A DNA stretch of 64,000 nt from Mobula hypostoma. Its lineage: Eukaryota. The stretch is taken from assembly GCF_963921235.1 (NCBI RefSeq), contig NC_086108.1, positions 38,876,001 to 38,940,000 of the forward strand, written 5' to 3'. Below, in pieces: positions 553-59,313 of this stretch. Both the position numbers and the translations under genes were made by a program. Below the pieces are notes generated by a model. It was not told where the DNA came from. It did no database searches and saw only the letters and a list, made by a program, of their open reading frames with translations. Positions within the stretch are counted from its first letter, which is position 1. Each line of letters starts with the position of its first letter.

Positions 553-735
553 GTTTTATGGGGGCACAATGTGAGATCGATATCCCTGAGTGCTTCAGTA
601 ATCCTTGTTTACATGGGGCAGAGTGTGTTGAACTCTCCTGGCGAAGCATGAATGGAAACACCACTGAATCGCCTGTAGTCTTTAGCTATGAGCGTGCTGC
701 TGGCTACATCTGTAAATGTCAGCATGGATTTACAG
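553..735 (+). CDS. CRB1: CRB1 exon (human exon 5 equivalent), EGF-like repeat
   Basis: Acceptor ttcag|GT and donor ACAG|gtacc, 183 bp, phase 1-1. Translates GFMGAQCEIDIPECFSNPCLHGAECVELSW...FSYERAAGYICKCQHGFTG, matching the CRB1 EGF with the CVELS...FSY..A.GY insert. Confidence 0.95.
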
Positions 736-8136: not shown

Positions 8137-8460
8137 TAATCAGATTATAGTAATAAATAGTCTTTAGGATAAAATGCCCTGCTAGAAAAGCAACATTTTG
8201 AACTAAATCCTGCAATGCATTTCTTCCACAGTTAAAATCCAATATTTCTTTATATTCTTTTCACAGACACCAGTTATAGTTGTGGGAGTAGCATAAGTGG
8301 GTCACAGAGACTTAGACCATTGGATAAGCAAGGAATTGACTGATTCCTGGGCTTAGCCTTGTTGATCTGTCTTTCAGAGCATTGAGCACTGAGCTGAGTC
8401 AGCGGACACAGCAGACAAAGGAACAATGTGCAGAGTTAGGATGTAAGTTAATCATAAGAA
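8137..8460 (+). promoter_or_regulatory. Candidate photoreceptor promoter for CRB1-B
   Basis: TAATCAGATTA paired-homeodomain palindrome at 8137-8147; GGCTTAG (CTAAGCC on -) at 8350-8356; GCTGAGTCAGC MARE core at 8393-8403; TAATCA near 8449. All lie just upstream of the candidate first exon in repeat-poor DNA. Confidence 0.6.
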
Positions 8461-8520: not shown

Positions 8521-8596
8521 ATGTCTTTAAAGAATTGTCTTGGAGAAATGGTATTACCCGTTCTTAAGGCTTCCATCTTCATGTTGGCTGTTGCAG
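8521..8596 (+). CDS. CRB1: Candidate internal first coding exon (exon 5c-like) of the CRB1-B isoform, signal-peptide-like leader
   Basis: ATG 8521 or Kozak gaaATGG at 8548 reads MSLKNCLGE-MVLPVLKASIFMLAVA-G. Ends at a strong phase-1 donor GCAG|gtaaat, in frame with exon 6 (G-SHCE). Confidence 0.75.
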
Positions 8597-10182: not shown

Positions 10183-11142
10183 GTTCACATTGTGAAATGG
10201 ACATCAACGAGTGTGACTTAAGCCCTTGTCAAAATGGAGGAACATGCCAGAATACCCTAGAGGGTTATATTTGTCACTGTCCAACAGGAAGTGAACAAGA
10301 GATATTTTATGGAGGCCAGAACTGTACAGACATTCTAACTGGATGCGAGAACCATGAATGCCAGAACAAAGCAACATGCATTCCTTATCTGAGGGACTCA
10401 CAACACGGGTACCATTGTCGCTGTGCTAATGGCTATGCTGGCTTGAACTGTCAATTATCAACTACATTTTCCTTTGCAGCCAATGGACATCTTCATTTTA
10501 AAACATCACTTACGGGGAGAAATGAGAACTCGACGAATAAACTTCCTTATCGTGTATTCCTAAGGTGTAGAACTGTGTTGTCCAATGCACTTATTTTTTA
10601 TAGAGGAACCAGAAAAACATTTATGAAATTGGAAGTACTCAATGGCCACTTATATGCATCTCTGCAAATAAGCAATCAACCGGTCGCAGGTCTTGAGATT
10701 TTTAAGAACATAAGTGATGGAGAATGGCACACTGTGGAAGTGACGTTCAGCAGAAACTTTTCTGTCAAACTTTTGGACAACGCCTGTTTGGAAGAATGCA
10801 TGATCCTGAAGTTTGTAGGAATGGAGAGTGAGGAATTTGCCAGAGTATTTGAAAACATATTCTTTGGGGGCATAGAGGACAGCTATGGAGGATTTTCAGC
10901 AGCCCCCCGGCCCCAGACCTGGCCTCATTTTATCGGTTGCCTTCAGGACGTGACAGTGGAATCAAAAGTAATAGACGTGGGCGTCCTTACAGTTGACTCA
11001 GCACTGAATGTGAAGCCAGGGTGCAGCAAGAGCGGTTGGTGTCAGAGCAATCCGTGCCAGGGCAAGGGTCAATGTATCGATTTGTTGATCAATTACACAT
11101 GTGAATGTTTCAGACCATACATTGGTTGGAACTGTTCTGAAG
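10183..11142 (+). CDS. CRB1: CRB1 exon 6 equivalent: EGF x2, laminin-G 1, EGF
   Basis: ttttcaag|GT ... GAAG|gtaaat, 960 bp, phase 1-1. SHCEMDINECDLSPCQNGGTC...SDGEWHTVEV...FIGCLQDV...CFRPYIGWNCSE. Confidence 0.97.
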
Positions 11143-11264
11143 GTAAATGGTACAATAATATTTCAAGGTTTTAAGTGAATACTCCACCTTTTCTTAGATA
11201 TAATGCTCACTATCCGTTTACATGTTCCTAATAATTTAGTTTCCCAATTCAGTAATAAAGGAAC

Positions 11265-14971: not shown

Positions 14972-15522
14972 AATTAATCCCTGGTGGATTTGGCTATGAA
15001 GATTCCAAAAGCTATGCTTTGTTTGTCATTGATAATGATCCAGGAGAAGAAGTGAACATATCCATGTTTGTTCGCTCTCACCAACCAGATGGTGCGTTAT
15101 TGATCCTGAGGAACAGTAGTGTTCTCTATCTACAGATGAAGTTGGAAGCTGGCCACGTGGTAGTCCGACCTCACTTGTCCAAACCTCTCACAAGTGATCA
15201 CTACATCACGGACAGTAAATTTTATTTAATAACTGTGGAAATAAAACAAAACAAAATGAAACTTGTTCAGATGGGACAAGTGGTAGGTCATGTACAAATT
15301 CCTCCGATTAGAATTCGAACTGGTGATGTAGTTTATATCGGAGGCTTGCCAGATCAGCTGGAACATGCTCAAGACACAAGACACTTTGAAGGATGCATCC
15401 AGGATGTAAAGATCAACAACAAGAGACTTGAATTTTATCCCATTAGTATCCCCAAGGAGACTTACAGTAACAGAATACTTGTCAATATAACAAGAGGCTG
15501 TAATGGCAACAGCACATGTAAG
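14972..15522 (+). CDS. CRB1: CRB1 exon 7 equivalent: laminin-G 2
   Basis: caacag|AA ... TGTAAG|gtacag, 551 bp, phase 1-0. LIPGGFGYEDS...ISMFVRS...GDVVYIGGLPD...FEGCIQDVKIN...GCNGNSTCK. Confidence 0.97.
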
Positions 15523-16623: not shown

Positions 16624-16789
16624 TTCAGCCCTTGCTTGAATGGTGGAACCTGCTCTTCCATCAAGGATGACTTTGTCTGCAACTGTCCTTCGAATACCTC
16701 AGGAAAAACCTGCAACCAAGTCCAGTGGTGCCAGCTCAGTCCTTGTCCGCAGGGTTCAAAATGTCACCTGATCAGAGATGGATCTGATT
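16624..16789 (+). CDS. CRB1: CRB1 exon 8 equivalent: EGF
   Basis: cctag|TTC ... GATT|gtgagt, 166 bp, phase 0-1. [42 protein letters not shown]. Confidence 0.96.
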
Positions 16790-20692: not shown

Positions 20693-20765
20693 AATTTCGG
20701 CATGGATTAGAAGGGCCAAGATGGTCTGTTTCTGTGCTGTAATTGTTATATGGTTATATGGTTAT
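20693..20765 (+). mobile_element. Short CR1 3'-end insertion within the Gypsy B integrase
   Basis: ggcatggattagaagggccaagatggtctgtttctgtgctgtaa followed by a (ttatatgg)n tail. Confidence 0.65.

Positions 20766-24112: not shown

Positions 24113-24114
<2 letters not shown>

Positions 24115-24161
<47 letters not shown>
24115..24161. repeat. (CA)n microsatellite inside the Gypsy B RT
   Basis: About 23 uninterrupted CA units. Confidence 0.98.
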
Positions 24162-24163
<2 letters not shown>

Positions 24164-27010
24164 CTCTACCTTCCCATTCTTCTTTCAGGCCACTACCATT
24201 GGGAACACATAGGGGCTTCGGGATTCGGTGATGATCCCAGCTTCCTTCAACTTACACAAGTTTTGCCAAGCGTCTTCCACCTCTACAGGGACCAGTCTCT
24301 GTGACCGCTCTCTAAATGGGGTGTCCTCGGTCACCCGGATAGTGTGACAAGTGCTCATGGAACAACCCACATCAAACTCTTCAGTGGAAAAGACACCTTC
24401 CAGCTTCAACATCTTCTCTACCAGCCTCCTCTTCCAAACCACAGGAACCAGGGAGTCCCCGAAGTTGAATGACTCAGCGGTCAACTTTCCCCCTTTTTCC
24501 AATAGTTTCTCCCCAGTTTGCCTCACAGGGACACTAGACATTACCGTCACTGGGAACAGATGCACCAGGGGCATCCCCCGCTTGAAGGTGACCTCCCTCT
24601 TCGTAGTGTTCCTGATAATCACTGCCATCCTGTGTTCCTGTACAACCGAGGGCAATTCTGCAATTCTGGCCTCACCAGTACCCCAGCAGGAAATCCCGAC
24701 TCCCCCTCGTGGTCGTCCAGAGCATGCACTAAGAGGGCTTTGCCCTCAGGCACTCTGGAAATTTGGGGGTCCCCATCACTCTCGCTATTTCCCCGGGGCG
24801 TACCACCATCGGCTTTGTCTGGGTGAACCACACAGTCCTTCGTCTAAATTCAGTATCTGGCCTGATGCAGCCACACACTTCCTCAAAAGCCGCTCAAAAC
24901 ACTGGGTGCACGGACAATGTTCCCAGAAAGCTCTCGCCGGCCTTCTCCCTGCAGGCCCCCATAAGCCTCCTCACAAGAGGGGTGTTGGTTCCACCAGAAT
25001 TGAAACACTGCCCATCTCAACAGGGTCCGGACAAACCAGCACCAACTGTATCAAGAACCTCAGACACTCCCACACCGGCCTCCGAGAACTCCAGTTTCAC
25101 TGACAAATAACCGTCCGATCGATAATCACCAGCACTGAGACCCCAAATCTCCAGTGCATTGAATGGTGTCAATGGTAAATGCTTCAGATACCGGTTGTAA
25201 AACGAACAGTACAACAACATGACCTGCGACCCAGTGTTGAGTATGGCTTTAGCATAAGTACTCTCTATCCGTAGCGACACACTGGAGCATGGTCCCACTA
25301 AACCTTCAGGAATTGGGCCTTTCGCTTTCAGGGATTCCTTTGTACATTGCTGGGAACATGTTCCCCCAGTGACACCAGGCCGTTCCCTCATTGGGTCTCC
25401 TCTAAGTTTTCCCAACAACTCTCCCTGCTTAGGTACCCGGGGGCTCACTCTCCTTCTAGTGTGACACCTGCCAACAGCCCCTCCACATTGTTCGTCCCCT
25501 TGAGGAATCTGTTCCCCCATCAGCTCCATCAAATGGGGGTGTCACACCTGCTGATAACAGCTGACATATCTCCGTTCTCAGCTCTGGACAATCTCCTCTA
25601 CCACTCCCCGGGGTAGGCTATCTGTGGTTACTTCAGGGGACTGCTATGGAGGACTGTACCCTGCTTTTGGAGCTCCTAGCTACGTGATCCATTCTTAACT
25701 GATCCACTTTAGCTGCCTGAATGACCCCTCTGCGCTACAAGCAATTTAGCTGCCTCTCTAGCTGAAAAATGTAAGCAGAAAGCATCTCCCCTTCTCCTGA
25801 CGCATGTTCTGAAACCCCACCATAAGCTCCAGTGGGCTTCCTATTGGGCAAAAAGCATTGTCCAGTGCTTGCATGTAATTGACAGCTGTTGCTACGGATA
25901 CCGCAACCTGACAGCTCTCACAACGTCAGCAGCCCACCCACTCAAACTCTCAACCAATCGCTGTCGCTTTACGCCATTAGAGCATTGCCACTCATCTAAC
26001 AACTGAGAGGTCCGCTCCGCCCAAGTCTCATGCTCCTCCTCCCCTCTAGAGGTGGGTGTTATTCCAGAGAATAGGCAGAGCCTGCCATAGCTGGGACTTC
26101 GAACCTGGGCATTTTCCCATTTATTCGCCAGAGAGGTAAGAGCGAATACTAACTCAGAATTCTCACTCTTCACTGGGGGACGTGGACTAATTAGATATTC
26201 TAAATCCGACCACTCCTTCCCCTCACTCCTCAGAAAATATAAAACCCTGTCATTGAAATCTCCACCCCCTCCCAGCTACATCTACGTCAAAGCTGGTCTG
26301 CATTAAAATGAGAGCTGCGCCCGCCACTTCATTAAACTTCCACCCCGCAATTGCAACTTTAATAGTACTTAACAGGCAAATTAACAATTCATTCCACTGG
26401 TTCAATGCTCAGGGTGATCACACAGCATCCAATGAAATCAATCCCGGACAAGCCCCCTCAATTGTAACTCTTGGTTCGGCTAGCGGCTTAATCTAGGGGA
26501 AGACAGCCCTTGGCCCGGCCAAACTTAAGAAATCTTGTTTGGGTGGATGCTGCGATGTGTACCCTGTTACAAATCAGTACCCCGAAATAACAAACAGTAC
26601 ACGATATTCGATTAAATGATTGAATTTATATAATTCTTAACTTGACTAGTAAGGAAATAAAAAAAAAGAAAAGGGCCCATTCTCATGAAACAGTTTTATG
26701 CGCAATGTTGGAGCTCACGGTTCAGCCCGTTGGTTTCCCCTCGACCTCCTCCAAGCGTAGCTGACCCTCGGACCCTCGCTCCAAGTCCTCTCCGTCCGGT
26801 GGTCTACCAACGCTCTCTCTTTGCGTCTCCTCTCCTCATCTCTCCCCAGCAAAAGACTGAAATCCCTTCTCCCAGACCCACAAGAAACAGCAACATCCCT
26901 CTTATTGGATAGCCCTACATTCCAAAGCCCTGTTATCCCTAGACATAACCCAAACATTGCTGCTACAGGGAAACCATTACCTTAGCAGTGAAACCTCACA
27001 GCACATTACA

Positions 27011-27290
27011 CTTGCAAATTTCTTCAAACTCCTTGAACTCTCTTCCAGCTTAAAACCAAGCCACATTTCGCAAGTAACTGCCTGGTGAATACATCAGTTT
27101 TCTCAGATATGTTGCCTGCCAAAATTATTGCAGTCAGGCCACTGCTTTCATCACTTCCACATTTCTACTGAGAAGTATGGTCCTTCCTTGATCCAATATG
27201 CTTTCCAACCAGAGGCACCACGGTTGGCACCAACTCTTGCTTACCCTCTGTTGGGCAATGGTTCATGGTGTACAGCATGGAGACAGTTTT
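27011..27290 (-). pseudogene. RBM25: RBM25 processed fragment, 5' part
   Basis: LVPTVVPLVGKHIGSRKDH..*...GNISEKTDVFTRQLLAKCGLVLSWKRVQGV*RNLQ joins the 3' part exactly once the Gypsy element and one CTTG TSD copy are removed. The 5' junction is uncertain between about 27235 and 27290. Confidence 0.88.
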
Positions 27291-27859
27291 GCATCATCCA
27301 ACACCTTTCCTAATTCATTTTTAGTTGACTTCACTGTAGGGAGTGTGACATGTAACTGGTGGATGGATCTCCAGTTAAGTTGTAGCTGTCTCAGCCAATC
27401 ATGTCCCCACAATGCTTGTCCTCCCATTTTTACCACATACAGGCTCAGTGTGGCATGTTGGTTGTCGTATTTCACTGACACGAATGCTGTTCCCACAGGA
27501 GTTATCTTTTCTCCAGTATAACTTCTTTGTTCAAAGGTATCTTGTGGAATGACTGTAACAGCTGACCAAGTATCCAATTCAATTTTAATTAAATTGCTGT
27601 TCACTTCTAGTGTAAGCCATATTGCTTGTCTATTTTTAAATTTCACATTATAAATCTCAAGGCTAGTCGGTCCTATGTCACTCTCATCATTATCAGATGT
27701 TTCATCAACAGCATGCAGATTAGTGCTCCTTTTGAAACTGTAACTCGACATTTTAGCTTTTTCTCTTCCCTGAGCAGTCTATTTATTTTTGTCTGCCCGG
27801 CACGCTCTTTGTATGTGTCCTATTTTGTTTAATTTCTTGCTAGTTTCATCGTTCGATCT

Positions 27860-30800
27860 CTGATGATCTATTCTGGTCCCAACATATTGATGCAGCTATA
27901 AAGAGTTTGAAGAGATTTGTCATCTGAAAAACTCTAAAATTCCTACAGATGTATCGTGAAGAGGATTCTGACAGGCAGCATCACTCTCTGTTATGGTGGG
28001 GGGGTGACTGCACAGGACCGAATTAAGCTACAGAAAACTCTAAAATTACTCAGCTCCATCTTGAGCACTAGCCTCCATAGTATGGAAGACATCGTCAAGG
28101 AGTGGTTCCTCAGAAAGTCGACGACCATCATTAAGGACCCCCATCACCCAGGACATGCCCTCTTCTCATTGTTACCATCCGGAAGGAGGTACAGAAGCCT
28201 GAAGGCACACACTCAGCGATTCAGGAACAGCTTCTTCCCCTCTGCCATCTGATTCCTGAATGGACATTGAACCTATGAACACCACCTCACTTTTTAAAAT
28301 ATATATTATTTCTGTTTTTGCACTATTTCTAATCTATTTAATATACAGAGTGTTAAAAATACACTTGGACTAAGATGTTAACTGTCCTGTGCTATCACCA
28401 GTGGGATCATCAGTTGATTTGCCACCTGTCTTCAGGAGTTTCGGCCCGCTTATGATCAAGACTCCCTCGAGGTGGTGGGCCAGCAGTGCTAAAGCACCAC
28501 CTCCCACTGGTGAGCTTAAAAACTTGGCATCTGCCTCTGTCAGTCACTTCCATCCAACAGAAAGTCTGCTCTTTAGGTGTCTATGCAACTACTGAAGGGT
28601 TTGCAAAAGATATACACACTGTCTGACTATCTGCCCCTCTGGACATACTTGGTCCATACCCATGCTGGTCCTTTCTCTGCTGCCTCAGCTACAGCCCTGC
28701 TGGTTGACTTGATCTCTCTTCTAGTGAAGCCAAGGTCATGCAGCCACTTCTGGAGAGTGAATACAATAAACCCACGGCAGCCTGCTTCGAATGGATAACA
28801 TGAGACCTTCCACCCTCTGTCTCTGCACTCTGATCTTAATTCTGCATACTTGGTTAACTTGCGCTCACGGGCTTCATCGATGTTGTCTTCCCAGGAGACT
28901 GTGAGTTCACCAATAACCACTTCTCTACTGGTGTCAGACCATACGATTATATCTGGACGCAATGTGGTGAAAGCTATTTGCTTCGGGAAACTGCCTTTCC
29001 CATCCAGGTCGGCCTTGACACACCAATCATTGGCTAAACAAAGTATGCTTGATCGTGATCCTGTGCTGTACACCCTTGACTTGGAGCCTTCTTTCACAAA
29101 TGATATGCAATGTTCTGTGCAACATGGGGCATGAGATAAGTTGTGCTGCAGTACTCTCTGCTCAGCCGCTTCTGTTACAACTTTGAGAACATTGTTATGT
29201 CTCCAAGTGTACATGCCGCTGGAAAGATTGACTCTGCATGCACTCAAGATATGTTGAAGTGTTCCCTTCTCGCCACAAGCAGCACACCTGTCTGTCTTAT
29301 CTTCATACCAGGTGCTGAGGTTGGTAGGTGTTGGGAGCAGGTCGTACACTGCTCTGCATAGAAAAGAGATGCGGAGTGGTTCCATCTGCCACAGAACATT
29401 CCAAGATAGATGTCATTGTTCAACACTTTCCCACCAGGTCCAAGCCCCTTGTTTGGCCAGGCCAGCTGTTTTAGTTAACCTCTTCTCCTCTTCTACCTCT
29501 CGTATTTCTTGTGTTACAAGCTCACGGCGCTCCTTACCTGTAGAAGATGACCACCACTTGTGGGTTGTCCACCCAAGTCCCTGGCGGCCTCACTGGATAG
29601 CCCCAACTGTCTCCTTGTGGTTCAATCTAGACTCTGCCTCATCAACTGCTACATGGGCTGACCACTTCCTGCCTGATCTCACATCCGGCTGGGTGTTCTT
29701 GATGACAGGGTCTTTTGAGTCTTGAAGCATCAAGAATGATTTTACCTTGGCTACCTTGACCTCCTCAACAAGGGATTGCACTGGGATGGTAAGCTTTGTC
29801 TGGCTACTGTGGATTGCAACATTGGTGAGGCTGCTTGGTACTCCAAGCCACTTCTTCACATACTTGTTGATCTTCCATTCCATTGCCTTAACATGGGACA
29901 TTGCCACTTTATAGACAGTTCGTGGCCACATTATCCATGGCATCAGTCCGTATTGCAAGCACCACAACTTCAACTTGCCAGGCAAGCCACACTTGTCAAC
30001 AGACATCAGACCTCTGCTGATCTGTTCTCCTGTCTCTTGAACCCTCTTGGTGTCTCTCAGCTCCTCTGTGTACCATCGCCCGAGGCTCTTAACTGGTTGG
30101 TCCTGAATAGATGGAATCTCCTCTCCACAAAGGATGAAATGAAAGTCAACCAGCTTTCCTCTCCTAAGAACAAGGCTCCTTGACTTCTTGGTCTTGAACT
30201 TCATTCTTCCCCAATCCATTAGCTCCTCGAGTCTAGATACTATAGTACATTTTCCACTGCCTCCGTGCTGCGACCCAAAAGGGTGAGATCGTCCATGAAC
30301 ACTTGTATTGGTGGTAACTCCCCTCCGCCATCAAGTGCGACACCTGGTCCCACTGATTCTGCAGCCCTCACAATGACCTACGTGGCTAACACAAAAAGGA
30401 TGGGTGAAATCGCACATCCCATTGGGATTCCAACATAAAAGCTCTGCCACCTAGTTGTAAACTGCTGAGTGGAAAACCTCATCCAGAAATCATTGTAGTA
30501 ATACATAACAAAGTTCCTCACCTTAGCAGGAATCCATAGGAATTCCATCGCAAACTCAATCAGGACATGGGGAACAGAACCATACGCATTTGCCAGATCA
30601 AGCCAAACTACAGCCAGATTTCTTCTCAACCTTTTTGACTCCTGGATGGTATGCCATATCATACTAGAATGTTCAAGGCATCCTGGGAAGCCTGGTATTC
30701 CTGCCTTCTGCACAGATGTATTTACTAATCCATTCTCTATCACAAATAAAGATATTCTTTCTGCCAGAATGCCAAACATAATCTTCCCCTCTACATTCAG

Positions 30801-32108
30801 GATTAAAATTGGTCGGAACTGATTCAATGTAGAAGAATTCTCTTCCTTCGAGATGTATACTCCTTCAGCCTCACTCCATGACAAAGGAACAACACCTTGT
30901 CTCCACACCACTTTTAGCAATTTCCACAAGTATTTCCTCAGCTCTTCACACTTCTTGAACACCTTATGCGGCACTCCATTTGGTCCTGGCACTGAGCCTG
31001 ACCTTGCCTTTCTGATTAACCGTTCGACTTCTGTCAATTTGGGTTCTGACAGATCGAACTTCACTCCTGGCTTGGTAGGCTTCACAGGCCCTGAAATATC
31101 AAGCAAAGGAGCCTCCCGCTGTTCGTTAGAGTAAGTGCTTGCCAGGTGATCCTCAAGTTCTTGTTGAGAGATGTTAATCTGCCCGCTCTTACTTTGTTCA
31201 AACTGTTTCTCTGTGAACTCATGAGGGTTCTTAAAGAACGACTTTCTTGCCTTCTCTCTCTTCTTTCTCTTTATGTTGTGACTCTGCATGATGGAGTGAT
31301 GCTAACTTTATTTGAAAATGCTCTCGGAGATCAGCAAGCCCTGGCTTGTCACCCTCACTTGCGACCTTCCACCTCTGTCTCAATGATCTAAGCTGTCTCC
31401 TCAACCTAACAATCTCCTTCTGGCGCCTGCTTGGTTGCTGTGTAGGCTTTGCTTTCTTCAATTCAACCAAACCAAACCTGTACTTTCCAACATCGTAAGT
31501 CATATCGCCCATCACTTCCAACTTTCTCTTTGATGTTCTCCTGAGAGTGTTCTCCAACATCATACTGATATCCTCATAAAAAACATGCCAAGCCTTCTCA
31601 TCTGCCATTGTTGGCCACTTGACCTTCCTCTTCTTCTCTACCTCCTCACCACCACCATCATGCGAAGGATCTACCTGGGTGCTGTGGTCTGAAACCTGAC
31701 CTGGGTTATCTTTCTTCTGACCTGGAATATGATGACTCTCTCCAGAGCGAATCGCTGTGGCTTGTGAATCAGTGGTTGAAAAGACCACATCATCTGTGCT
31801 TGGTGAAGTAACCTCATCTTCATCCACTGGGATGGAATAGCACCTCAACTTTGCTTGGTGGACTCGTACACCTTTAATGCTGGAAAACGCTCTCCCACAC
31901 CAACACACTGGACACTCAGAGCCTCTTATTCTAGCTCTTGGTTGTAGTCGTTCCCTGTAATTAACTGTATCCATATATACATGTACTGTAATTGAACCAT
32001 TTATTTATTTCATTTCTTCCTTTATTATCAGGTATTGCATTTTCCTGCTGCCGCTAAATTAACAAATTTCATGACACATGCCAGTGATAATAAACCTGAT
32101 TCCGATTC
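27860..32108 (+). mobile_element. L2/Rex1-type LINE 3' fragment (27860-28347 plus 31975-32108) split by a HERO-like element
   Basis: IIKDPHHPGHALFSLLPSGRRYRSLKAHTQRFRNSFFPSAI*. The 3' UTR resumes after 31975 and ends taaacctgattccgattc. Confidence 0.8.
28348..31974 (-). mobile_element. R2-group (HERO-like) non-LTR retrotransposon: ZnF, RT, CCHC, restriction-like endonuclease; frameshifted
   Basis: CWCGRAF..VHQAKLRC; VVWLDLANAYGSVPH; GIPMGCAISPILF; FMDDLT; CAAC..HILSAC..WRHN; RPDIIVW..IGELTV..RKLTKY. Probable TSD atataca at 28341-28347 and 31975-31981. Confidence 0.9.
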
Positions 32109-42231: not shown

Positions 42232-43132
42232 GCCTTATTAGTGCTACGTTTAAAGGAGAGGAAAGACTAACTTTCAGAGGGAATGGCAACATTAAGCAAC
42301 AGCTCACCAATGTTACCTTCAGCCTCCAGACAAGGGAACCGAACGCAGTTGTGCTCCACGCTGTAAAGGAACAAGATTTTATCACAGTTGGCACCCAGCA
42401 GGGCCATTTAATATTTATGATACGAAGTGGAAACAGTTGGGGCAATCTGAGTATCTGCAGCTCAAATCCGATAAGCGACGGTCTCTGGCACGATGTTACT
42501 TTTCGCATGAGTGATCCCTTGCTTCAGTATTCCAGCTGGCAGCTGGAAGTAGACAGGAAAGAAATTGTAACCAGTGCGACTGTCAGTGGGAACCTGAACT
42601 TCCTGAGAGCAGAAACGGACATTTACCTAGGTGGCGGAGATGAACGCAAAGGAGGCAGCTTCAAAGGTTGCCTGAACACACTGAAACTTGGTGGCATCTC
42701 CTTGCCGTACATTGCAATTGATAATATGCATATTATCCAACCTCAGCAAGAACAATTTATACAGACATCCTTCAAAATCATATTACTGGGCTGCCCAACA
42801 GAGAGTACTTGTGCATCAAATCCCTGCAAAAATAATGGCAAGTGTGAGCACATGGTCAGTTACTATCAATGTAGCTGCCCTCCAGGCTGGACAGGCTTGA
42901 ACTGTGAAGAGAATATCAACAATTGCCAGTCAAGTCCATGCATTCATGGCAACTGCACAGACAATGTCTCGGCGTACAAATGTGTCTGCTTACCTGGTTT
43001 CACCGGCAATAATTGTGACGTGAGCCTAGACAACTGTCAAAAGCACAGGTGTGCCAATGGAGCAACTTGCATTGACACAGTCGACAATTACTCGTGTAGT
43101 TGCCCGAGTAACTTCACTGGAAGGTTTTGTCA
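42232..43132 (+). CDS. CRB1: CRB1 exon 9 equivalent: laminin-G 3 and EGF x3
   Basis: ttgcag|GC ... TGTCA|gtaagt, 901 bp, phase 1-2. LISATFKG...LTNVTFSLQTR...SDGLWHDVTF...GNLNFLRAETDIYLG...NFTGRFCQ. Confidence 0.97.
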
Positions 43133-46009: not shown

Positions 46010-47520
46010 TAAAAAGGGGACCTGAAAGCCAAGATCAGGGAGGCTAAAGACAGGTACAGGAGGAAGCTTGAGTGGAAACTCCAGCAGAACAACATGAGAG
46101 AGGTCTGGAGTGGGATGAGGACCATCACTGGGTTCCGGCAAACTAGCAACAGAGGAGCTGAAGGCAGTGTGGACAGGGCCAAAGAAACTTAACCTGTTCT
46201 TTAACAGATTTGACATTCTGGCCCCTGCCCATCCCCCATATGAGTCATCTGTTGTCAGCCCCCAACCAACACATATTCCACTCTCCCCTCCTACCCCTCC
46301 TCACAGTCCCCCACCCTGCTCTCATGATTATACCTCTTCCCCACACGAAACTACCACGGTGGGCTTCACAGCTGAACAGGTGAGAAGACAGCTGAAACGT
46401 CTCAACCCAAGCAAGGTTGCAGGACCAGATGGTGTCAGTACCAGGGTGCTCAAAGCCTGTGCCCCTCAGCTATGTGGAGTACTTCGCCATGCCTTCAACC
46501 TGAGCCTGAGACTCCGGAGGGTTCCTGTACTGTGGAAGACGTCCTGCCTCGTCCCTGTGCCGAAGACGCCGCGCCCCAGCGGCCTCAATGACTACAGACC
46601 AGTGGCATTGACCTTCCACATCATGAAGACCCTGGACAGACTTGTTCTGGAGCTGCTCCGGCCTATGGTCAGGCCACACTTAGATCCCCTCCAGTTCGCC
46701 TACCAGCCCCAACTAGGAGATGAGGATGCCATCGTCTACCTGCTGAACCGTGTCTACGCCCAACTGGACAAGCCAGCGAGCACTGTGGAGGTCATGTTTT
46801 TTGACTTCTCCAGTGCGTTCAACACCATCTGCCCTGCTCTGCTGGGGGAGAAGCTGACAGCGATGCAGGTGGATGCTTCCCTGGTATCATGGATTCTTGA
46901 TTACCTGACTGGCAGACCACAGCATATGTGCTTGCAACACTGTGTGTCCGACAGAGTGATCAGCAGCACTGGGGCTCCACAGGGGACTGTCTTGTCTCCC
47001 TTCCTCTTCACCATTTATACCTCGGACTTCAACTACTGCACAGAGTCTTGTCATCTTCAGAAGTTTTCGGATGACTCTGCCATAGTTGGATGCATCAGCA
47101 AGGGAGATGAGGCTGAGTACAGGGCTACGATAGGAGACTTTGTCACATGGTGTGAGCAGAATTATCTGCAGCTTAATGTGAAAAAGACTAAGGAGCTGGT
47201 GGTAGACCTGAGGAGAGCTAAGGTACCGGTGACTCCTGTTTCCATCCAGGGGATCAGTGTGGACATGGTGGAGGATTACAAATACCTGGGGATACGAATT
47301 GACAATAAACTGGACTGGTCAAAGAACACTGAGGCTGTCTACAAGAAGGGTCAGAGCCGTCTCTATTTCCTGAGGAGACTGAGGTCCTTTAACATCTGCT
47401 GGACGATGCTGAGGATGTTCTACGAGTCTGTGGTGGCCAGTGCTATCATGTTTGCTGTTGTGTGCTGGGGCAGCAGGCTGAGGGTAGCAGACACCAACAG
47501 AATCAGCAAACGTATTCGTA
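46010..47520 (+). mobile_element. Rex1/Babar-type LINE with a largely open RT ORF (46167-47558)
   Basis: GPDGVS..LK.CA.QL; DYRPVALT; LDPLQFAYQ; FFDFSSAFNTI; GAPQGTVLSPFLF; KFSDDS; YKYLG. Truncated at both ends. Confidence 0.92.
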
Positions 47521-47994
47521 AGTTCAAAGTAAATTTTAAGACTGAGAGCAAATGGTAAAAAATATCCTATTCCTTCACCTAGCATCACTCGAAGTTTTTG
47601 ACAAACTAAATCAACTTAAAATTTGAAAGCAGAAATTTGATATTATTAATTTCCTAAAGAACATGAAAAATAGAAATTGGAGCAGCAGAACTGTTGTCAT
47701 GGCTGAAATTGAACAGTGCACTGGAAGGTGCACAAATAAAATCTTGCAAGTTGGAACAGAGTTCAAGCTACATTTGTCATTTTGGTATTAGGAAATTAAA
47801 TGGAAAAGCGAATAGAAGAAAACCATAAAATACAGCCTTTGCTGCTGCATGATTCTGTGATGAACTTTGCACTGTTCAAAATTGTGCTTTAACTAGAAAA
47901 CCCACTCTCTGTACAAATGGCATGATTCAACTACAGAAGTGATGCGTCCCACTTGACCCTGCCTGCAGGGAGGACTGTATCTTACCCTGGGAAG

Positions 47995-48788: not shown

Positions 48789-48990
48789 CTGGGAAGTTTG
48801 ACACAACTTACTGCTGCAAAGATAGAGTAAAAAATTTTGAATTCTTGGATGTCAACATTTCAAATGTGAACGCACAAACACATGAGGGACAAAAAAATAT
48901 TAGAACACTTGACATATAACTGTACCAAGATGTTTATCTAGCCTTTTTATAGTCAATAATTAATATAGAATTAATTTCCTTTTGTCATAG

Positions 48991-49116
48991 ATACCTTAGA
49001 TTATCTGTTACATTTTGCCATGATGAGAAGCATAATTGGACCTGTTACAATGGAGGCAACTGTACCGAGGAGAAATTTACAAGGTGTACCTGCCCGTTAG
49101 GATTCACTGGAAGCCT
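48991..49116 (+). CDS. CRB1: CRB1 exon 10 equivalent: EGF (too short for the ORF track)
   Basis: tcatag|A ... AGCCT|gtaagt, 126 bp, phase 2-2. [41 protein letters not shown]. Confidence 0.95.
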
Positions 49117-51984
49117 GTAAGTGACACAGAAAATTAATTAACATACTCTGATCAATTTGGTACTAAAAGTTGTGCGGGCGGGGTAGACTGATTGGTGGTG
49201 ATGGTAGAGGGAGAGAAACGTTTAGAGTTGAAGTAGATTTTTGGAGGCAGCATGTGGAAGCAGAGAAAGAAGCATTCTAAGTTCAAGACTTTCCAGATTG
49301 TTCTACATTTAGACAGCTCATCACAACTAAATTATCATCAATACGGGCAGGAACCTTCATAAAACTTACCAACTCAGTCATGTGGCAATTAACGAGAATA
49401 AAATTGCAAACAGATATATTAAATCTGGAAAGAAGATCATCACCGTGTCAAGAATAAAGAAAATTATGACAACAAATTCATTAATGTGTATACTGCCTGT
49501 TGCATTTTCATAGATGGAAAGTAACAATTTTACATAGAACAATATTTCTCTAAAATCAAAACTAAGAGAGAAATAAAATTAAATATGCATTAAATTGCTT
49601 CTTTTCATACAATCTGTCTGGTGTTTCACAGGAAAAAATTCTGATAACTCAGAATTGTCAACAAAATTGTGTAATAATGTGGTTGGTCCAAGTGTTCAAC
49701 AGTTCAAAGGTTCATTTATTATCAAAGTATACAACTCTGAAATTCTTCTTCTCTGGCTAGCCCTGAAATCAAGAAAGAAAAGAAAGGTAGCCCGATCATC
49801 AACCCCCAAAATCCCTCCGCCCCTCACAACAAACAAACAAAAATAGAACAGGCACATTAAACCCTAAATCCCTCCTCCCATACAAAAAAACAAACAAAAT
49901 GAAACTAGCACATTGAATCCCCCTCCCCACACAAAAAAACGAGAATGATCGGATGAAAAACACAGGATAAGACTGAAACAAAAGCCTATATATAGTTCAA
50001 GTCAACATCCAAAGCACAGAAAACCTGAGCAACACTCCCCGGCCACAGTGGCAGGCTCTCCCCTCTCCAGTAGCAAAGCGATCAAAGGACGGGCAGACAG
50101 TGCTCACACTTATTCTTCATTTTGTTCTTATGCTACTTGTTTACTTTAAATCATAGCATCTGATGGAAGCAGCTTTTCCAATTCAACTTGTTAAATATGT
50201 ACAAAATACGCTATGATTCATGGTTCAATGTAACAAATATGTAAATAGGTTAAACTCAGCTGCTTCAACATTGACCTTCCCAAAGTCAGGAAAGGGGACA
50301 TTGGATTTTCATTGCAATTCCACAGACAATGAAGCTGTCCATGTCTGAATGTAAGCAAGAAATTGAGAATGTTCTGACATGGGTTAAGAAGCAACAAACA
50401 AGATGTACAAAACAATGATTGTCTCCAACATGAGGGAGCTAAATATTTCCCCTTAAGATGCAACAACGTAGTCTCCACCATTAACATCTGGGCTGGGAGA
50501 GTGTCATCAATACCTTGACTTTCTAAATACTGTGGCTGCAAGAATGTCAGGCACTCTGTATCCTGAGGCAAATGATTCGCCACCTGGCTCTTCCTAATCT
50601 TTCTATCAACATCAGTGATAAGGGGGGTAAAATGGAGCATTCAGCATTTGTTTTTGATTGCAGTTCCAATAACTCTCATGGATCTAAACAGAGCTAAGCA
50701 GCCTGCTCACTGGCACTGTGTAAACACTTCTAAACACTTAACCCTCTCCCACTGCCCCCGTTGGCTTGGACTGTGCTTCACAGTTAAAGTCACCCATGAC
50801 AACACTGCTGTTTTCACACCTTTCTCCAATCTGTCTGCATTGTCTGCTAAACACACTGCAGCAACTTGTCATTTTGTTAACATTTCCCTACAAGCTGCTC
50901 AGTGACTTGAAAATAAATCCCTATTTCTTATCAGAGCTGGTTCAAAGTACTGGAATTACTTATCAGATGTGCAGAGACATCTTTTATCACTGGGGCTGCA
51001 GCTGTTCCAGGGGGCAGTTCATCACCACTTTCCAGAGAGCAATTAGAACGAATACTAAATACTGCCCTTTCCAAATATGCCCTCAAACTGTGAACGGAGG
51101 CAATAAAGGCATCAGTCACCCTTTGGAAAAAAAGGAAGAATTTGTGATGGAGCACAAGTAAACAGAATAAATATTTTAGGAGATGCTATTGTTATGATGA
51201 CACGGAGCCTTTTCCTGCATTCAGCATCTGTGCTCGCTGTGGAGATCCTATCATGTTGCCCCAGATCCTCAGTGGCAACACCATCTCCATCAGTGCAGTA
51301 TTAGAACCCTACTCCTAACAACTTTTTTTTATACCTTTTTAACTATTTCCATGAAACTTAGGCTAATTGGGGCAAAGAAGTACTGGTCCCGATATGTCTC
51401 ATACAAATGGAATCCACTGTAATTAATAAAATGATTGCAAAAATATCCAAGTAAAATTATTTAAATGCAAACAACAGCAATCATTGCAAATATTAAACAG
51501 AACAATAAGGAAGGAGTTTATCTTCCTCTTTTTTTCTCTCTGCAGTCTGACAATCCCCAATGAAGGGGTCAGATACTCAAGTTTAAATGGTGGGGATTCT
51601 CAGCAAGATCATGCTCTGTCAGTGGGCGCCATGAAAAACTGTGTAGCACGATGTCTGATGGATCCAGTGGCCATTAAAGTTGGCACTTCCACATTTGACA
51701 ATGCAGGTGTGCAATTCCCAGACTTGGTAACTTCACTTTAAGTGGGTACCATTGGCATTTACCAACTACATCTGAGCTGACGTTGTAAGGGACAGGCACA
51801 TTTTGAGTTGAAGAATTCAGACTAAATATAAAAAAATGACAAATAATACTGCATTCCAAAGAATATCTGAAACTCAAATTTGTGGCATTCCATAATACTA
51901 CAGTGAATAGTGGTAGAAAAATTGCTTACAATTAAGCACTGTATCTCTAAATAAATAAAGACTGTTGTTCTTAAATTGCTGTTG

Positions 51985-53145
51985 GTCAGCACAGGGCTTC
52001 AGCGCATGACTGGGTATCCCGTCTGGTCCAGATGCTTCCGTGGATTCACCCTTCTGAAGGCAACTCGCATGTCAGCTTTGGAGACTAAGATCACAGGATC
52101 ATCAGGGATGTGGGTGTTCATGATGGTTTTCTTCATGTTCTGAAGGTCAAAGCGAGCGTAGAAGATGTAGACAAACAAGAGAAAATCCATAGTGATGATG
52201 ACTGTGTGGCCAAGTACAGCTGCAATGCCATATTCAAGTTTGCTGATGACACCGCTGTTGTGGGCTGAATCAAAGGTGGTGATGAATCAGCATACAGGAG
52301 GGAGGTTGAAAATTTGGCTGAGTGGTGTCATAACAACAACCTCTCACCTAATGTCAGCAAGACCAAGCAACTGATTGTAGACTTCAGAAGAGCAAAGCCA
52401 GAGGTCCATAAGCCAGTCCTCATCAAAGGATCTGAGGTGGAGAGGGTGAGCAACTTAAAATTCCTGGGTGTTAGTATTTCAGAGGACCTGTCCTGGGCCT
52501 AATTTCAAACTAGCACAGCAGTGCCTCTGCTTCCTTAGGAGTCTGTCAAGATTCAGCATGACCACTAAAACTTTGACAAACTCCTATAGATGTGTGGTGG
52601 AGAGTATATTGTCTAGCTGCATCACAGCCTGGTATGGAAACACCATTGGCCTTGAATGGAAAATCCTACAAAAATGGTGGATATGGCCCTCTCAACTATT
52701 GAGCACTTCAACATGAAACACTGTTGTAGGAAAGCAGCATCCAACGTTAGACATCCTCATCACCAAGGTCATGCTCTCTTCTCACCACTGCCATCTGGTA
52801 GAAGATACCAGAGCCTCAGGTTGAAGAAAAGATACTGTTTCTCAACCATCAGGTTCTTGAGTGGAAAAGGAGAATTACAGTCACTTGCCCCACCTTTGAA
52901 ATGTTCCCACAGCCAATGATCTCACTTTAAGGACTCTTTATCTCATGTTCACGTTATTTATTGCTATTTATTTATATTTGCATTTGCACAGTTTGCTGTC
53001 TTCTGTACTCTGGTTGGTCTTTCATTGATCCTATTATAGTTACGATTCTGTAAATTTGCTGTGTTTGCCCAGAAGAAAATGAATCTCAGTATTGTATGTA
53101 GTTATATATATGTACTATGATAATACAATTTACTTTGAACTTTGA
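51985..53145 (+). mobile_element. L2-type LINE 3' part with an inverted 5' segment (about 51985-52190)
   Basis: KFADDT, LAEWCHNNNL..NVSKTKQLIVDFRR, HPHHQGHALFSPLPSGRRY and a (ctttgaa)n tail. Minus-strand FYARFD..RVAFRRVNPRK abuts it. Confidence 0.8.
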
Positions 53146-53239
53146 ATGATGCCCAGTTGAGCAATTGTCCTTAAAAATGAAAGTAATATATATTTGTCTT
53201 AAGTATTTTACTTGAACACTTCTCCTGAACATCTTGCAG

Positions 53240-53366
53240 ATGCGAAATCGACATGAATGAATGTGAATCAAACCCTTGTCTTAATGGAGGTTTCTGCCAA
53301 GACTTGCCCAACAAGTTTCAGTGCATCTGCGATATGAGCTTTGCCGGTGACCGCTGTGAGTTTGAT
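53240..53366 (+). CDS. CRB1: CRB1 exon 11 equivalent (canonical spliced form): last EGF
   Basis: ttgcag|A ... TTTGAT|gtaagc, 127 bp. [42 protein letters not shown]. Confidence 0.96.
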
Positions 53367-53477
53367 GTAAGCGATCTCTCATTTTTCATCTCTGTGTTAC
53401 TGTGGCAAAATATTTTTCAGCTTCTTTCATACCTCATTCTACGAATGGATGATGAACCAGCAGTTGAGTGGGCTTGA
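53367..53477 (+). CDS. CRB1: Exon-11 read-through extension: alternative CRB1-B-type C-terminus
   Basis: The frame stays open across the donor: [36 protein letters not shown]. This closely resembles the mammalian alternative tail as recalled ([36 protein letters not shown]...). AATAAA at 53498 and 53732. Confidence 0.9.
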
Positions 53478-55687
53478 AGTTCTTGGATAACCAAACTAAT
53501 AAATCATCTAAAAGGATTGGACTTAACTTATGCCTGAATAGGTCTCGGTACTGTTAGGAAGCAGCTAATTACAAACCTTTAAACATTGGGAAAACTCAGG
53601 ACCTATTATGGCTTTCAACCTATATAACATTTTAATGCACATTATCTGGGAAAATTATTTTTTGGAAATATTTAGCATCAGATATTTCAATGAAACACAT
53701 AGCTAAGAAACTTATTTTCCAGTAATTTGGGAATAAATACGCGTGGAGATGATCCCATTATATTTTGTTTCCAGTGGAGATTAATTAAGAATATTCATTT
53801 TAGCTAGTTAGAAATCCTTGTGTTCTGCAAGGTGAACACACTACACTGGGATGATTAACCATCTTAACTCACTTTGGTGTTTAGCAGTTTTAGTTATTAG
53901 GTTCTGCATTTTTCTTTCAGATGAAAGTGATAAATGTTTAAAAATGGTAAACATTTCTATGATATCATTTCTTTCCTCTCAATTTCATGTTTATATTTAA
54001 ATGCAGTTACACGATCCGCCTCAGTCATTTCAAATTGGTGAAAATATGACTTTTTATCCACTCTGAGAAAAATTATTTTTGCTGATCTCCTAATTGGATT
54101 TGTTAGTGATTATCTTGTACATTGGACTTGATATTTTCCTTATATCTTCTCCACTTTTAAAGACCTCTGTCAAGTCACCTCTATGTCTTTTATAAAGTAA
54201 AAAGGTTCCAAAACTACTCAGCTGTCCCTTTTTCTTTAAATTATTGAAAATAAAACCAACAGGTGCTAAAGAGAATATCATTGAGTAATGTGCTGCCCCA
54301 TCAGATGCAACTTTTCAATGTCATCCTATTCCTGAGCTTCTTGGGGGTTGAGGTTGTGGGTTTGGGATGTGTTGCTGGAGTAGCTTGGACAAGTACAGGG
54401 AGCTTCAGTGCGTTTTGTAGATAGCACTAATTACAGCCATTTGATGATGACAATGCAGAATGTGTTCCAGGTGTTGGATACGGTACCAGCGAAGCAAGGC
54501 ATTTAGTAAGGAGCAAGTGAGCTTTCACACCAGGAGGAAAATCCAGGCTATTCAACCACTTACCTCAAATCTGGCTATCTGGGTCTCAGGGAAGGGTAGT
54601 TTAATATCTAAAGCAGAACCTGCCTTGGTAGAGTGTAGTGCAGAAACGGCGGAGTGTAGGTCTCATTGAACTGCTCATATAAGGGGCTGGCATTCCAGTA
54701 ATGATTGTTATTCTGTGATCTAGATTTTGGAGGCATGAAAGACATCTGGCAAAAATTATCATATTTTGGGGTAAAGAAGGATAATAAAATTATAAATCAG
54801 CAGTGCTGCATCGCAAACAAAAAAAAACAGCCATTCACCCAACTCCTCGGAGAAGAAAAGCCCATGAACTTCGGAATAAAATCAACAAAGATGATTCTTA
54901 ACAACTCAGAGCAACTGTGGTAAATCAAACCCACCCTGAAGTTGCTCTTTTCCCATCGATTATCAAGTGAGTCACTGAACAGCACCAGTGACTATCTTAG
55001 TCATGATAGGAAACATATCAATGGACTACAATTGTCCAGAGTATTTGGGTACATCTTCCGGGCGCAGCAGAAATCTGGCTGTAAATAACGACAAGAAATT
55101 CCCATCAAATAGAGACATATACCAGTAAATTCAATTATCATCCAATGTCCCCAGTCTCTCTATTTTTTAAAAATATAAAGTAGTAAATTCAGTTGTTACA
55201 AAACTACTAAACTTTCTTCTGGCCCAAGTATAAACTTTCAAACCATGCCATTGCTGAAACAGTTTCTAAAGCCTTGGGGGAAAAAAGGGCATCAGGACTA
55301 GTGATGGGGTGACAAGTTGCTTAAACAACCAATTCAACAGCAAATCACTGTCTTACGGTGTTCTTTTTCACTGATAAGCGATTTCACCAAGGTTCCATCG
55401 AACAACAAGTAGCAAGTGAAGCAAAATATGTTAAGACTTTCATGGAAATCTTCAGGGGCTTACACTTAGTTCCATACGACAGCTTCAGAACACTGTGCTT
55501 CAGAGTTCAGTCACAGTAAATTTAGGGTTAATACAGGATGTCTTCACTTTCACTGGATGCTAAATTTGTGATGTACAGATTAGGATTACCAAATCAAACC
55601 CAGGATTAAGTGGTGTGAGATTCTTTTCAAAGTTTCCGGTTTCCAGGTTGAACACTGATATTGCATTAAGGCTCTACTAATGCCATA

Positions 55688-57733: not shown

Positions 57734-59277
57734 AACTGAAAGAAGAGCTAGTAAGAGATTTGAAAGTGGGAGGGGGAGGGGGAGATCCAAAATGATAGGA
57801 GAAGACAGGAGGGGGAGGGATGGAGCCAAGAGCTGGACAGGTGATTGGCAAAAGTGATACGAGAGGATCATGGGACAGGAGGTCCGGGAAGAAAGATGAG
57901 GAGGTGGGGGGGGGGCCCAGAGGATGGGCAAGGGGTATATTCAGAGGGACAGAGGGAGAAAAAGGAGAGTGAGATAAAGAATGTGTGTATAAAAATAAGT
58001 AACAGATGGGGTACGCGGGGGAGGTGGGGCATTAGCGGAAGTTAGAGAAGTCGATGTTCATGCCATTAGGTTGGAGGCTACCCAGACGGAATATAAGATG
58101 TTGTTCCTCCAACCTGAGTGTGGCTTCATCTTGACAGTAGAGGAGGCCGTGGATAGACATGTCAGAATGGGAATGGGATGTGGAATTAAAATGTGTGGCC
58201 ACTAGGAGATCCTGCTTTCTCTGGCGGACAGAGCGTAGGTGTTCAGCAAAGCGGTCTCCCAGTCTGCGTCGGGTCTCGCCAATATATAAAAGGCCACATC
58301 GGGAGCACCGGACGCAGTATATCACCCCAGCCGACTCACAGGTGAAGTGTTGCCTCACCTGGAAGGACTGTTTGGGGCCCTGAATGGTGGTAAGTGAGGA
58401 AGTGTAAGGGCATGTGTAGCACTTGTTCCGCTTACACTGATAAATGCCAGGAGGGAGATCAGTGGGGAGGGATGGGGGGGACGAATGGACAAGGGAGTTG
58501 CGTAGGGAGTGATCCCTGCGGAATGCAGAGAGAGGGGGGGAGGGAAAGATGCGCTTAGTGGTGGGATCCCGTTGGAGGTGGCGGAAGTTACGGAGAATAA
58601 TATGTTGGACCCAGAGGCTGGTGGGGTGGTAGGTGAGGACCAGGGGAACCCTATTCCTAATGGGGTGGCGGGAGGATGGAGTGAGAGCAGATGTGCATGA
58701 AATGGGGGAGATGCGTTTAAGAGCAGAGTTGATAGTGGAGGAAGGGAAACCCCTTTCTTTAAAAAAGGAAGACATCTCCCTCGTCCTAGAATGAAAAGCC
58801 TCATCCTGAGAGCAGATGCGGCGGAGACGGAGGAATTGCGAGAAGGGCATGGTGTTTTTGCAAGAGACAGGGTGAGAAGAGGGATAGTCCAGATAGCTGT
58901 GAGAGTCAGTAGGCTTATAGTAGACATCAGTGGATAAGCTGTCTCCAGAGAAACAGACAGAAAGATCTAGAAAGGGGAGGGAGGTGTCGGAAATAGACCA
59001 GGTAAACTTGAGGGCAGGGTGAAAGTTGGAGGCAAAGTTAATAAAGTCAACGAGCTCTGCATGCGTGCAGGAAGCAGCGCCAATGCAGTCGTCGATGTAG
59101 CGAAGGAAAAGTGGGGGACCGATACCAGAATAGGCATGGAACATAGATTGTTCCACAAAGCCAACAAAAAGGCAGGCATAGCTAAGACCCATACGGGTGC
59201 CCATAGCTACACCTTTAGTTTGGAGGAAGTGGGAGGAGCCAAAGGAGAAATTATTCTCTTAAACTCTTCCTTCAGTT

Positions 59278-59313
59278 AGTCCTGACGAAGGGTCTCGGCC
59301 TGAAACGTCGACT
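59278..59313 (+). ncRNA. Minimal hammerhead ribozyme, consensus core intact, sense to CRB1
   Basis: AGTC-CTGACGA-AGGGTCTCGGCCT-GAAAC-GTC-GACT. Confidence 0.75.

Follow-up and report, generated by a model that had tools for sequence, protein, structure and literature searches.

A CRB1-B-type read-through C-terminus in the ray Mobula hypostoma and the conservation of its predicted membrane helix

In the ray Mobula hypostoma, the last CRB1 exon ahead of the usual C-terminus can be read through its splice donor into a tail of 36 residues, and this tail is almost certainly the ray ortholog of CRB1-B exon 11b. CRB1-B is the photoreceptor isoform made of exons 5c, 6-11 and 11b, and its tail segment was described as a predicted transmembrane and intracellular domain conserved across vertebrates (Ray et al., 2020, PMC7335077). 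As the best explanation of the data as a whole, we consider it likely that the exon 11b ortholog acts as a membrane anchor with a polar helix face used for packing. Exon 11b and its vertebrate conservation are known already, and the tail is present in Narcine and Mustelus RefSeq models; what is added here are read-through contigs that extend past the first AATAAA, a candidate B first exon and a residue-level map of conservation. No system of a new kind emerges from the result, which indicates a candidate B first exon that ray annotations lack. CRB1 is a human blindness gene, and the CRB1-B isoform is under consideration for gene therapy.

Seven CRB1 exons (5-11) were located on the + strand of the 64-kb window, i.e. 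the whole stretch of M. hypostoma DNA that was analysed, by tblastn to ray CRB1 and by AG/GT boundaries. The 943 residues encoded by exons 6-11 were letter-identical to the named M. hypostoma CRB1 protein (P0095), and the six exon pieces matched M. birostris at 97.3% and Hypanus sabinus at 91.1% identity. In a quick tree, P0095 grouped with CRB1, apart from CRB2 (support 100). Judged from sequence, the gene in the window is a CRB1 ortholog, and its exons 6-11 are those also used by CRB1-A. A motif scan gave no match within the 64 kb to exon 12 (FERM-binding/ERLI motifs) or to a crb3-like gene. The features of the locus are given below.

553..735, + strand: CRB1 exon 5, A isoform only, EGF repeat (tblastn to ray CRB1, AG/GT ends)
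8137..8147, no strand assigned: TAATCAGATTA, a K50-homeodomain (CRX/OTX-type) dimer site, candidate B-promoter element (sole TAATCNGATTA match in the 64 kb)
8548..8596, + strand: candidate CRB1-B first coding exon (5c), 49 nt, phase 1, reads MVLPVLKASIFMLAVA, signal-peptide-like (best intron-5 donor, shape)
10183..11142, + strand: CRB1 exon 6, EGF repeats and LamG1 (tblastn, domain search, AG/GT ends)
14972..15522, + strand: CRB1 exon 7, LamG2 (tblastn, AG/GT ends)
16624..16789, + strand: CRB1 exon 8, EGF (tblastn, AG/GT ends)
42232..43132, + strand: CRB1 exon 9, LamG3 and EGF repeats (tblastn, domain search, AG/GT ends)
48991..49116, + strand: CRB1 exon 10, EGF (GT..AG joint from 49116 to 53240 in contigs of 3/4 runs)
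53240..53366, + strand: CRB1 exon 11, last EGF repeat, with the phase-0 donor used by the A isoform (translation, contigs)
53367..53477, + strand: exon 11b read-through, 36 aa and TGA; residues ~4-25 predicted membrane helix, 26-36 predicted acidic cytoplasmic stub (translation, conservation, donor-bridging contigs of X1 and X8)
53478..54254, + strand: 3' UTR of the read-through form, candidate poly(A) signals at 53498, 53732 and 54249 (contig cover, AATAAA positions)

Translation of 53241-53480 gave the last EGF repeat followed by the 36-residue tail and a stop (TGA at 53475-53477), the tail starting right at the exon-11 donor (GAT/GTAAGC, 53366/53367); the overlap of extension and donor described in an earlier note on this DNA is thus confirmed. 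Against the donor consensus, this donor matches at 6/9 positions vs 7/9 for the exon 10 donor, and it is ordinary, not strong. As in mouse and human CRB1-B, which share the read-through of the exon-11 donor, the translated tail has neither the FERM-binding motif (GxYSPS) nor the C-terminal ERLI PDZ-binding motif, just as the note had stated. An open frame of 36 codons has a chance of ~16% in this intron, so that the reality of the tail rests on conservation and RNA.

Four of 14 public runs, none of the 14 being recorded as RNA, were compared with 48850-54350. All were assembled contigs (three runs presumed RNA, one unlabelled, with no tissue label), and contig depths were not taken as expression levels. 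Contigs of X1, X2 and X3 (3/4 runs) joined 49116 to 53240 across a GT..AG intron, and because they span the exon 10-11 joint these runs hold spliced transcripts. In X2 and X3, a spliced contig ended exactly at 53366 and another began at 53337 and crossed the tail to 53740 (X2) or 54178 (X3), which is the pattern of a fork at the exon-11 donor. The read-through contigs of X2 and X3 have 30 exon-side letters, one below the 31-letter bridging rule. The donor was properly bridged in 2/4 runs, by an X1 contig (53312-53518, 0 differences) and an X8 contig (53306-53473, 3 differences), and it is these contigs that speak for transcripts retaining the segment. X1 also has a contig at 53657-54213. No single contig in the four runs held both the exon 10-11 joint and the tail; 6/30 bins were without cover in any of the four runs, all of them in intron 10, and the last bin was covered by X1 alone.

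The AATAAA reported after the extension is present at 53498-53503, with others at 53732 and 54249. Since the X2 and X3 contigs run past it, however, this first signal is probably not the main transcript end. The simplest reading of the contigs is a terminal exon of up to ~0.9 kb, though contigs cannot mark a true end. In the mechanism that we propose, a transcript in which the exon-11 donor is left unused would run on, stop at 53477 and be polyadenylated within ~0.8 kb, and the Crumbs tail of exon 12 (FERM-binding and ERLI) would be replaced by another membrane anchor with an 11-residue acidic stub.

The tail was then followed across vertebrates. Among the 94 hits of a first protein search (102 candidates), 37 carry it, from birds, a snake, coelacanth, sturgeon and many teleosts, and a tail-only search (15 hits of 16 candidates) added a lizard and three mammals. 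The cartilaginous-fish set comprised 43 entries from eight clusters, one cluster being represented by its best 15 of 19; the tail was found in 4/43, namely Narcine (two isoforms), Mustelus and a fused M. birostris model. A chimaera model carries the first ten tail residues, and the M. hypostoma CRB1 entry ends in the A tail. When all 368 fetched proteins were aligned to the tail, 94 scored at least 100 and the other 274 below 60, with none between. The fetched CRB2 and invertebrate Crumbs entries, all annotated A-type models, fell in the low-scoring group, and this is weak evidence that the tail is absent from them. A search of 1.84 billion representatives with the tail gave 22 hits, of which 19 were CRB1-type tails and 3 repetitive proteins. 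The homolog searches were seeded by shared words and could miss diverged tails; no tail was found in an amphibian entry, 8 frog CRB1 entries having been examined. Neither novelty nor absence is shown by the blanks in Pfam (0 families on the tail), solved structures (0 matches) and the protein atlas (no usable hit). Metagenome contigs were scanned for tail DNA of other species, and not one of the 339 pattern matches could be confirmed. Judged by titles and the opening of abstracts, no literature report of the tail in cartilaginous fish was found, a check that does not extend to the species in Fig. 7b of PMC7335077.

The ray tail was identical to the CRB1 C-termini of marmot, swan and coelacanth at 28/36, 31/36 and 30/36 positions, respectively, and it was 67-89% identical across jawed vertebrates in 14 comparisons (75-78% to the three mammalian entries). 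Its identity exceeded that of all three LamG domains in 14/14 comparisons, which upholds the earlier claim of higher similarity than in those domains, and that of the adjoining EGF repeat in 13/14, with one tie. For marmot, 28/36 in the tail compares with 163/390 in the pooled LamG domains (Fisher p 3.6e-5). The LamG domains are an easy benchmark; the telling contrast is the CRB1-A membrane helix (see below). The 943-residue core identical to P0095 bears out the cartilaginous-fish origin given in the note, and the tail is of the CRB1-B type; on this distribution it is at least as old as jawed vertebrates and predates the shark/bony-fish split.

To see where conservation sits, a column tally was made over 54 distinct tails, with rows chosen by alignment score. 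Gln14, Asn15, Gln18, Tyr22 and Leu23 were invariant where aligned (53 or 54 rows), Trp13, Phe17, Ser21, Asp29 and Trp35 each varied once, and positions 4-10 varied freely among hydrophobic and small residues. Near the end, D29 (53/54), P31 (52/54) and W35 (51/52) were almost invariant, and the Arg that closes the 22 uncharged tail residues was kept in 52/54. The invariant core W-Q-N-x-F-Q-L-L-S-Y-L falls inside the predicted membrane helix. In six distant species, identity to the ray was 12-13/14 over residues 13-26 and 5-8/10 over residues 27-36. What had been taken for a single conserved motif is indeed conserved, but it consists of two things, residues 13-26 in the predicted membrane helix and the last 11 residues, which are predicted to be cytoplasmic.

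Such conservation could in principle belong to the RNA or DNA, as a splice donor, an intronic polyadenylation element or a splicing regulatory element, with the peptide carried along. The first two tail codons also form the splice donor, and part of their invariance comes from this double duty. Furthermore, the matches listed for X2 and X3 give one difference in the 111-nt tail, a synonymous one (53429, Ser codon), vs at least 15 in the 263 nt after the tail among the matches listed for X2. Yet the substitutions among the 54 tails are conservative (I/L/V/F/M, D/E) and the length changes keep the frame. Six tails start with Ile or Ala instead of Val, neither of which can be a GT donor codon, and the core is retained in them, which argues for selection on the peptide. 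The tail peptide was also detected by antibody in mouse retina (PMC7335077). We accordingly regard a purely nucleotide-level explanation as very improbable.

With selection on the peptide as the preferred reading, its structure was considered. AlphaFold2 (35-row alignment) predicted tail residues 2-27 as one helix with an unstructured end (pLDDT 94 and 82 in the two main blocks). The B tail resembles the canonical Crumbs tail (CRB1-A exon 12, CRB2, CRB3) in that it, too, comes after this last EGF repeat and provides a membrane helix. In CRB1-A, however, the helix is strongly hydrophobic and variable and it is the 37-residue cytoplasmic tail that is conserved (25-35/37 identical); the B tail reverses this, with a conserved polar helix and a short acidic stub that lacks GxYSPS and ERLI. 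Identity of the membrane segment to the ray was 15-19/22 for B (6 species) vs 3-12/23 for A (8 species, ungapped). In the only species present in both sets, the values were 18/22 vs 12/23 (coelacanth) and 15/22 vs 7/23 (sturgeon). The mean hydropathy of the best 21-mer was 1.6 for the B helix vs 2.9 for the A helix, and a summed insertion scale (position ignored) gave +3.9 vs -5.3 kcal/mol. The B helix is weakly hydrophobic and marginal as a membrane span.

This marginal hydrophobicity, with a net charge of -3 after the helix, would suit a tail that does not cross the membrane, being either an in-plane or re-entrant helix or the end of a secreted protein tethered outside. A human isoform of 1376 aa with an alternative exon 11 was reviewed in 2017 as lacking transmembrane and intracellular domains and putatively secreted (PMC5380682, available part), and as 1335 + 41 = 1376 residues, it very likely has this same tail on an exon-1-start transcript; later work reads the segment as transmembrane. 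The main text of PMC7335077 uses neither 'topology' nor 'permeabil' (0 occurrences of each). In the same paper, however, mouse CRB1-B was found in the membrane, not the soluble, fraction, and a C-terminal YFP fusion reached the plasma membrane of K562 cells with a signal resembling that of CRB1-A. The mouse data and the 22 uncharged residues closed by a conserved Arg argue for a membrane span. An amphipathic helix was not supported either, the hydrophobic moment not being above shuffles (p 0.53). A non-spanning tail is, in our view, quite improbable. The earlier note proposed an uncharacterised membrane or binding function; the membrane role is likely, but it is not new, since a predicted transmembrane and intracellular domain was already described in PMC7335077.

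A GPI-anchor signal would end the protein in a hydrophobic stretch, which is then removed by cleavage. This candidate was rejected, as 11 mostly acidic residues follow the hydrophobic stretch in the ray tail. An antibody to the last 16 residues detects full-size mouse CRB1-B (PMC7335077), which also counts against a cleaved signal.

A membrane-spanning anchor needs hydrophobicity, not an invariant Gln-Asn-x-x-Gln, and we infer helix-helix packing from this. Buried polar residues commonly drive such packing in membranes. The invariant Gln14, Asn15, Gln18, Ser21 and Tyr22 would lie on roughly one helix face, and we lean, by a modest degree, to the helix itself as the conserved working element, with its polar face serving helix-helix packing. 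The five core polar residues span a 120-degree arc, and 4.3% of 5-residue subsets are as tight, the set having been chosen after the fact. The polar-face reading is weak because it is post hoc, because of the moment at p 0.53, and because the arc widens to 240 degrees once Ser5 and Ser9 are added. Modelled as a pair without alignment, the 37-aa tail scored 0.02, which speaks neither for nor against such packing. Most probably the helix would associate laterally with itself or with another membrane protein, and this association would cluster CRB1-B or sort it to the inner/outer-segment membrane. As the YFP fusion reaches the surface of non-retinal K562 cells, no retinal partner is needed to reach the membrane, and the role of any partner is more probably clustering or sorting than help with insertion. 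The available text of two reviews (PMC7456964, PMC11129452) adds no partner of the tail. As targets for mutation, the residue map puts the polar helix core ahead of the terminal Trp, and the last five residues behind both.

Besides the helix, the P-x-[VI]-[ED]-W end is conserved, though more weakly, and would probably be a trafficking signal. It could instead be the working element itself, an acidic motif read by a trafficking adaptor or a motor such as kinesin light chain, with the helix a mere anchor. Kinesin light chain binds tryptophan-acidic motifs, whose core is hydrophobic-acidic-Trp-acidic. SKIP's W-acidic peptide is LEWDD (PMC6214655, available part), and CRB1-B-type tails conserve [VI]-[ED]-W, with D29, P31 and W35 nearly invariant. 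The chain after the last Trp has 1-6 residues (countable in 87/94 entries) and a single one in Narcine, Mustelus, M. hypostoma and one teleost model; because the chain can end there, the Trp would mark the last needed position. On the other hand, the residue after the Trp is mostly Gly, Asn, Ala or Val, not the Asp of the SKIP peptide, residues 27-36 are less conserved than 13-26, and the invariant polar residues of the helix are left unexplained. We therefore hold the stub as the working element to be possible but doubtful, and prefer the helix. Unlike mammalian CRB1-B, the ray tail ends one residue after the conserved Trp (36 vs 41 aa). The idea that the last mammalian residues are dispensable agrees with the varying length after the Trp, but those residues are well kept in birds, the lizard, mammals and coelacanth and may matter there.

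In order to find the other end of the isoform, intron 5 was scanned for open phase-1 ATG..GT candidates. There were 59, of which 11 had a donor of at least 6/9, and the best donor (8/9) closes 8548-8596, a 16-codon hydrophobic stretch whose shape and A-G end resemble the starts of B-type proteins from sturgeon and teleosts; another ATG in the same frame is found upstream, at 8521. Two other intron-5 donors also pass loose donor and hydrophobicity cut-offs. The model 5c-6-7-8-9-10-11-11b is open, with all internal junctions AG/GT, and gives 996 aa, compared with 1003 aa for human CRB1-B. The available part of PMC12859255 gives this human length, together with segment 1' as 52 nt in intron 5 and segment 11' as c.4005+1 to +126; the ray counterparts are the 49-nt candidate, likewise a short phase-1 signal-exon candidate in intron 5, and +1 to +111. 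Unlike in human, where the distance is 7 kb, the ray candidate lies 1.6 kb from exon 6. With this first exon, the product would be a 996-aa cell-surface protein with EGF and three LamG domains, which might adhere or signal across the cell surface while detached from the PALS1/FERM polarity scaffold. The stretch 8548-8596 is put forward as a candidate only for the CRB1-B first exon in the ray.

The K50 dimer site lies 400 bp upstream of candidate exon 5c. Its consensus TAATCNGATTA is the one given for CRX in the available part of PMC6169884, and it has one match in the window with 0.08 expected; 8/100 shuffles reach one match. Single CRX-type hexamers were not enriched in the window (43 vs 60 expected).

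The candidate exon is not in the M. hypostoma entry, and no ortholog of it was found in other cartilaginous-fish entries (43 entries, and the best 120 of 257 in a further homolog search). The search for B-shaped shark proteins gave mostly Notch, CRB2 and invertebrate Crumbs among its best 120 of 257. Rays might thus use the tail solely on exon-1-start transcripts of the 1376-aa type, the candidate being a chance match and the full B isoform having arisen later, in bony vertebrates; such a view is compatible with the other alternatives discussed. None of the 43 cartilaginous-fish entries is B-shaped at ~1000 aa, and the tail-bearing models P0098, P0099 and P0109 have 1308-1433 aa and start upstream. 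The 1376-aa shape also occurs in RefSeq models of Narcine (P0098, P0099), swan (P0001) and sturgeon (P0002). The two further donors and the shuffles that match the dimer site point the same way. Against this stand the best donor, the right phase and length and the A-G end of the candidate, and the position of the window's sole dimer site. Moreover, annotation depends on retinal RNA, and mammalian CRB1-B itself was absent from RefSeq, GENCODE and UCSC until 2020. An exclusive use on exon-1-start transcripts seems unlikely to us.

Retaining the complete B isoform as the preferred reading, we expect from orthology and the dimer site that ray CRB1-B is made in photoreceptors, which is probable by analogy with the mammalian isoform. 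More tentatively, and in a proposal that may well prove wrong, the entire CRB1-B unit (CRX-type promoter, signal exon and read-through tail) would have existed in the jawed-vertebrate ancestor, the tail would be a dedicated intramembrane recognition helix (W-Q-N-x-F-Q-L-L-S-Y-L) binding itself or a photoreceptor membrane protein, and teleosts would have kept a B-only duplicate through its importance. If this is true, the helix partner would supply the missing step in explaining how outer-limiting-membrane junctions are held by CRB1-B when the polarity scaffold is not engaged. A 2026 preprint reports that CRB1-B in rods rescues the null mouse and leaves the biochemistry open. Among 389 patients, no variant affected CRB1-B alone (PMC12859255), although one cohort's panel missed the B-specific regions (PMC8657784, available part).

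Several teleost entries (P0032, P0039, P0048, P0057, P0060, P0067, P0068, P0070 and P0368) appear to represent a second crb1 gene that makes the B form alone. These 'crumbs homolog 1-like' proteins (980-1022 aa) are B-shaped like the isoform, with a Culter tail 69% identical to the ray, but they form a separate paralogous clade. In a quick tree on the ectodomain, eight teleost rows of 980-1022 aa made up their own clade with SH-aLRT 100 (P0070 entered as 472 residues), and Coilia and Eucyclogobius each contribute one protein to either clade. The tail starts with Ile in entries from catfish and goby, which have therefore lost the GT donor to exon 12. For zebrafish, the available part of a review lists five crb genes with one crb1 (PMC11129452).

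In Hemiscyllium and Rhincodon, a 118-aa crb3-like gene is apparently on the contig of crb1, and in many crb1 models from sharks and rays exon 11 is joined to the membrane helix and ERLI tail of this gene, giving a third C-terminus (entries for the crb3-like observation: P0121, P0126, P0097, P0034, P0008, P0016, P0025, P0096, P0102, P0112 and P0214). In fused models the B tail is followed by the crb3-like part (P0097) and this by the A tail (teleost P0034), which suggests a crb3-like gene between exons 11 and 12, beyond the window end. The splice may reflect real shared exons or an annotation artefact; a literature search found nothing on a crb3-like C-terminus of crb1 models.

Models P0184 (frog) and P0113 (catshark) go on for only a few residues beyond exon 11, the first of them Val; these ends may come from a read-through that has degenerated in frogs, or from other splice forms. 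An unnamed protein, P0347, has a cartilaginous-fish-like tail that runs ~50 residues past the conserved Trp, a stop loss or an assembly error. Elsewhere in the window, read-through of the exon-6 donor (11143-11174) gives only 10 residues before a stop; CRB1-C is the mammalian isoform that retains intron 6. Finally, broken retroelement-like frames were seen in introns 8, 9 and 11 (~20300-26300, 27200-27800, 28600-32000, 46100-47600 and 58000-59300), which by their motifs we take to be a gypsy-like LTR element, non-LTR reverse transcriptases and a Penelope-like element.
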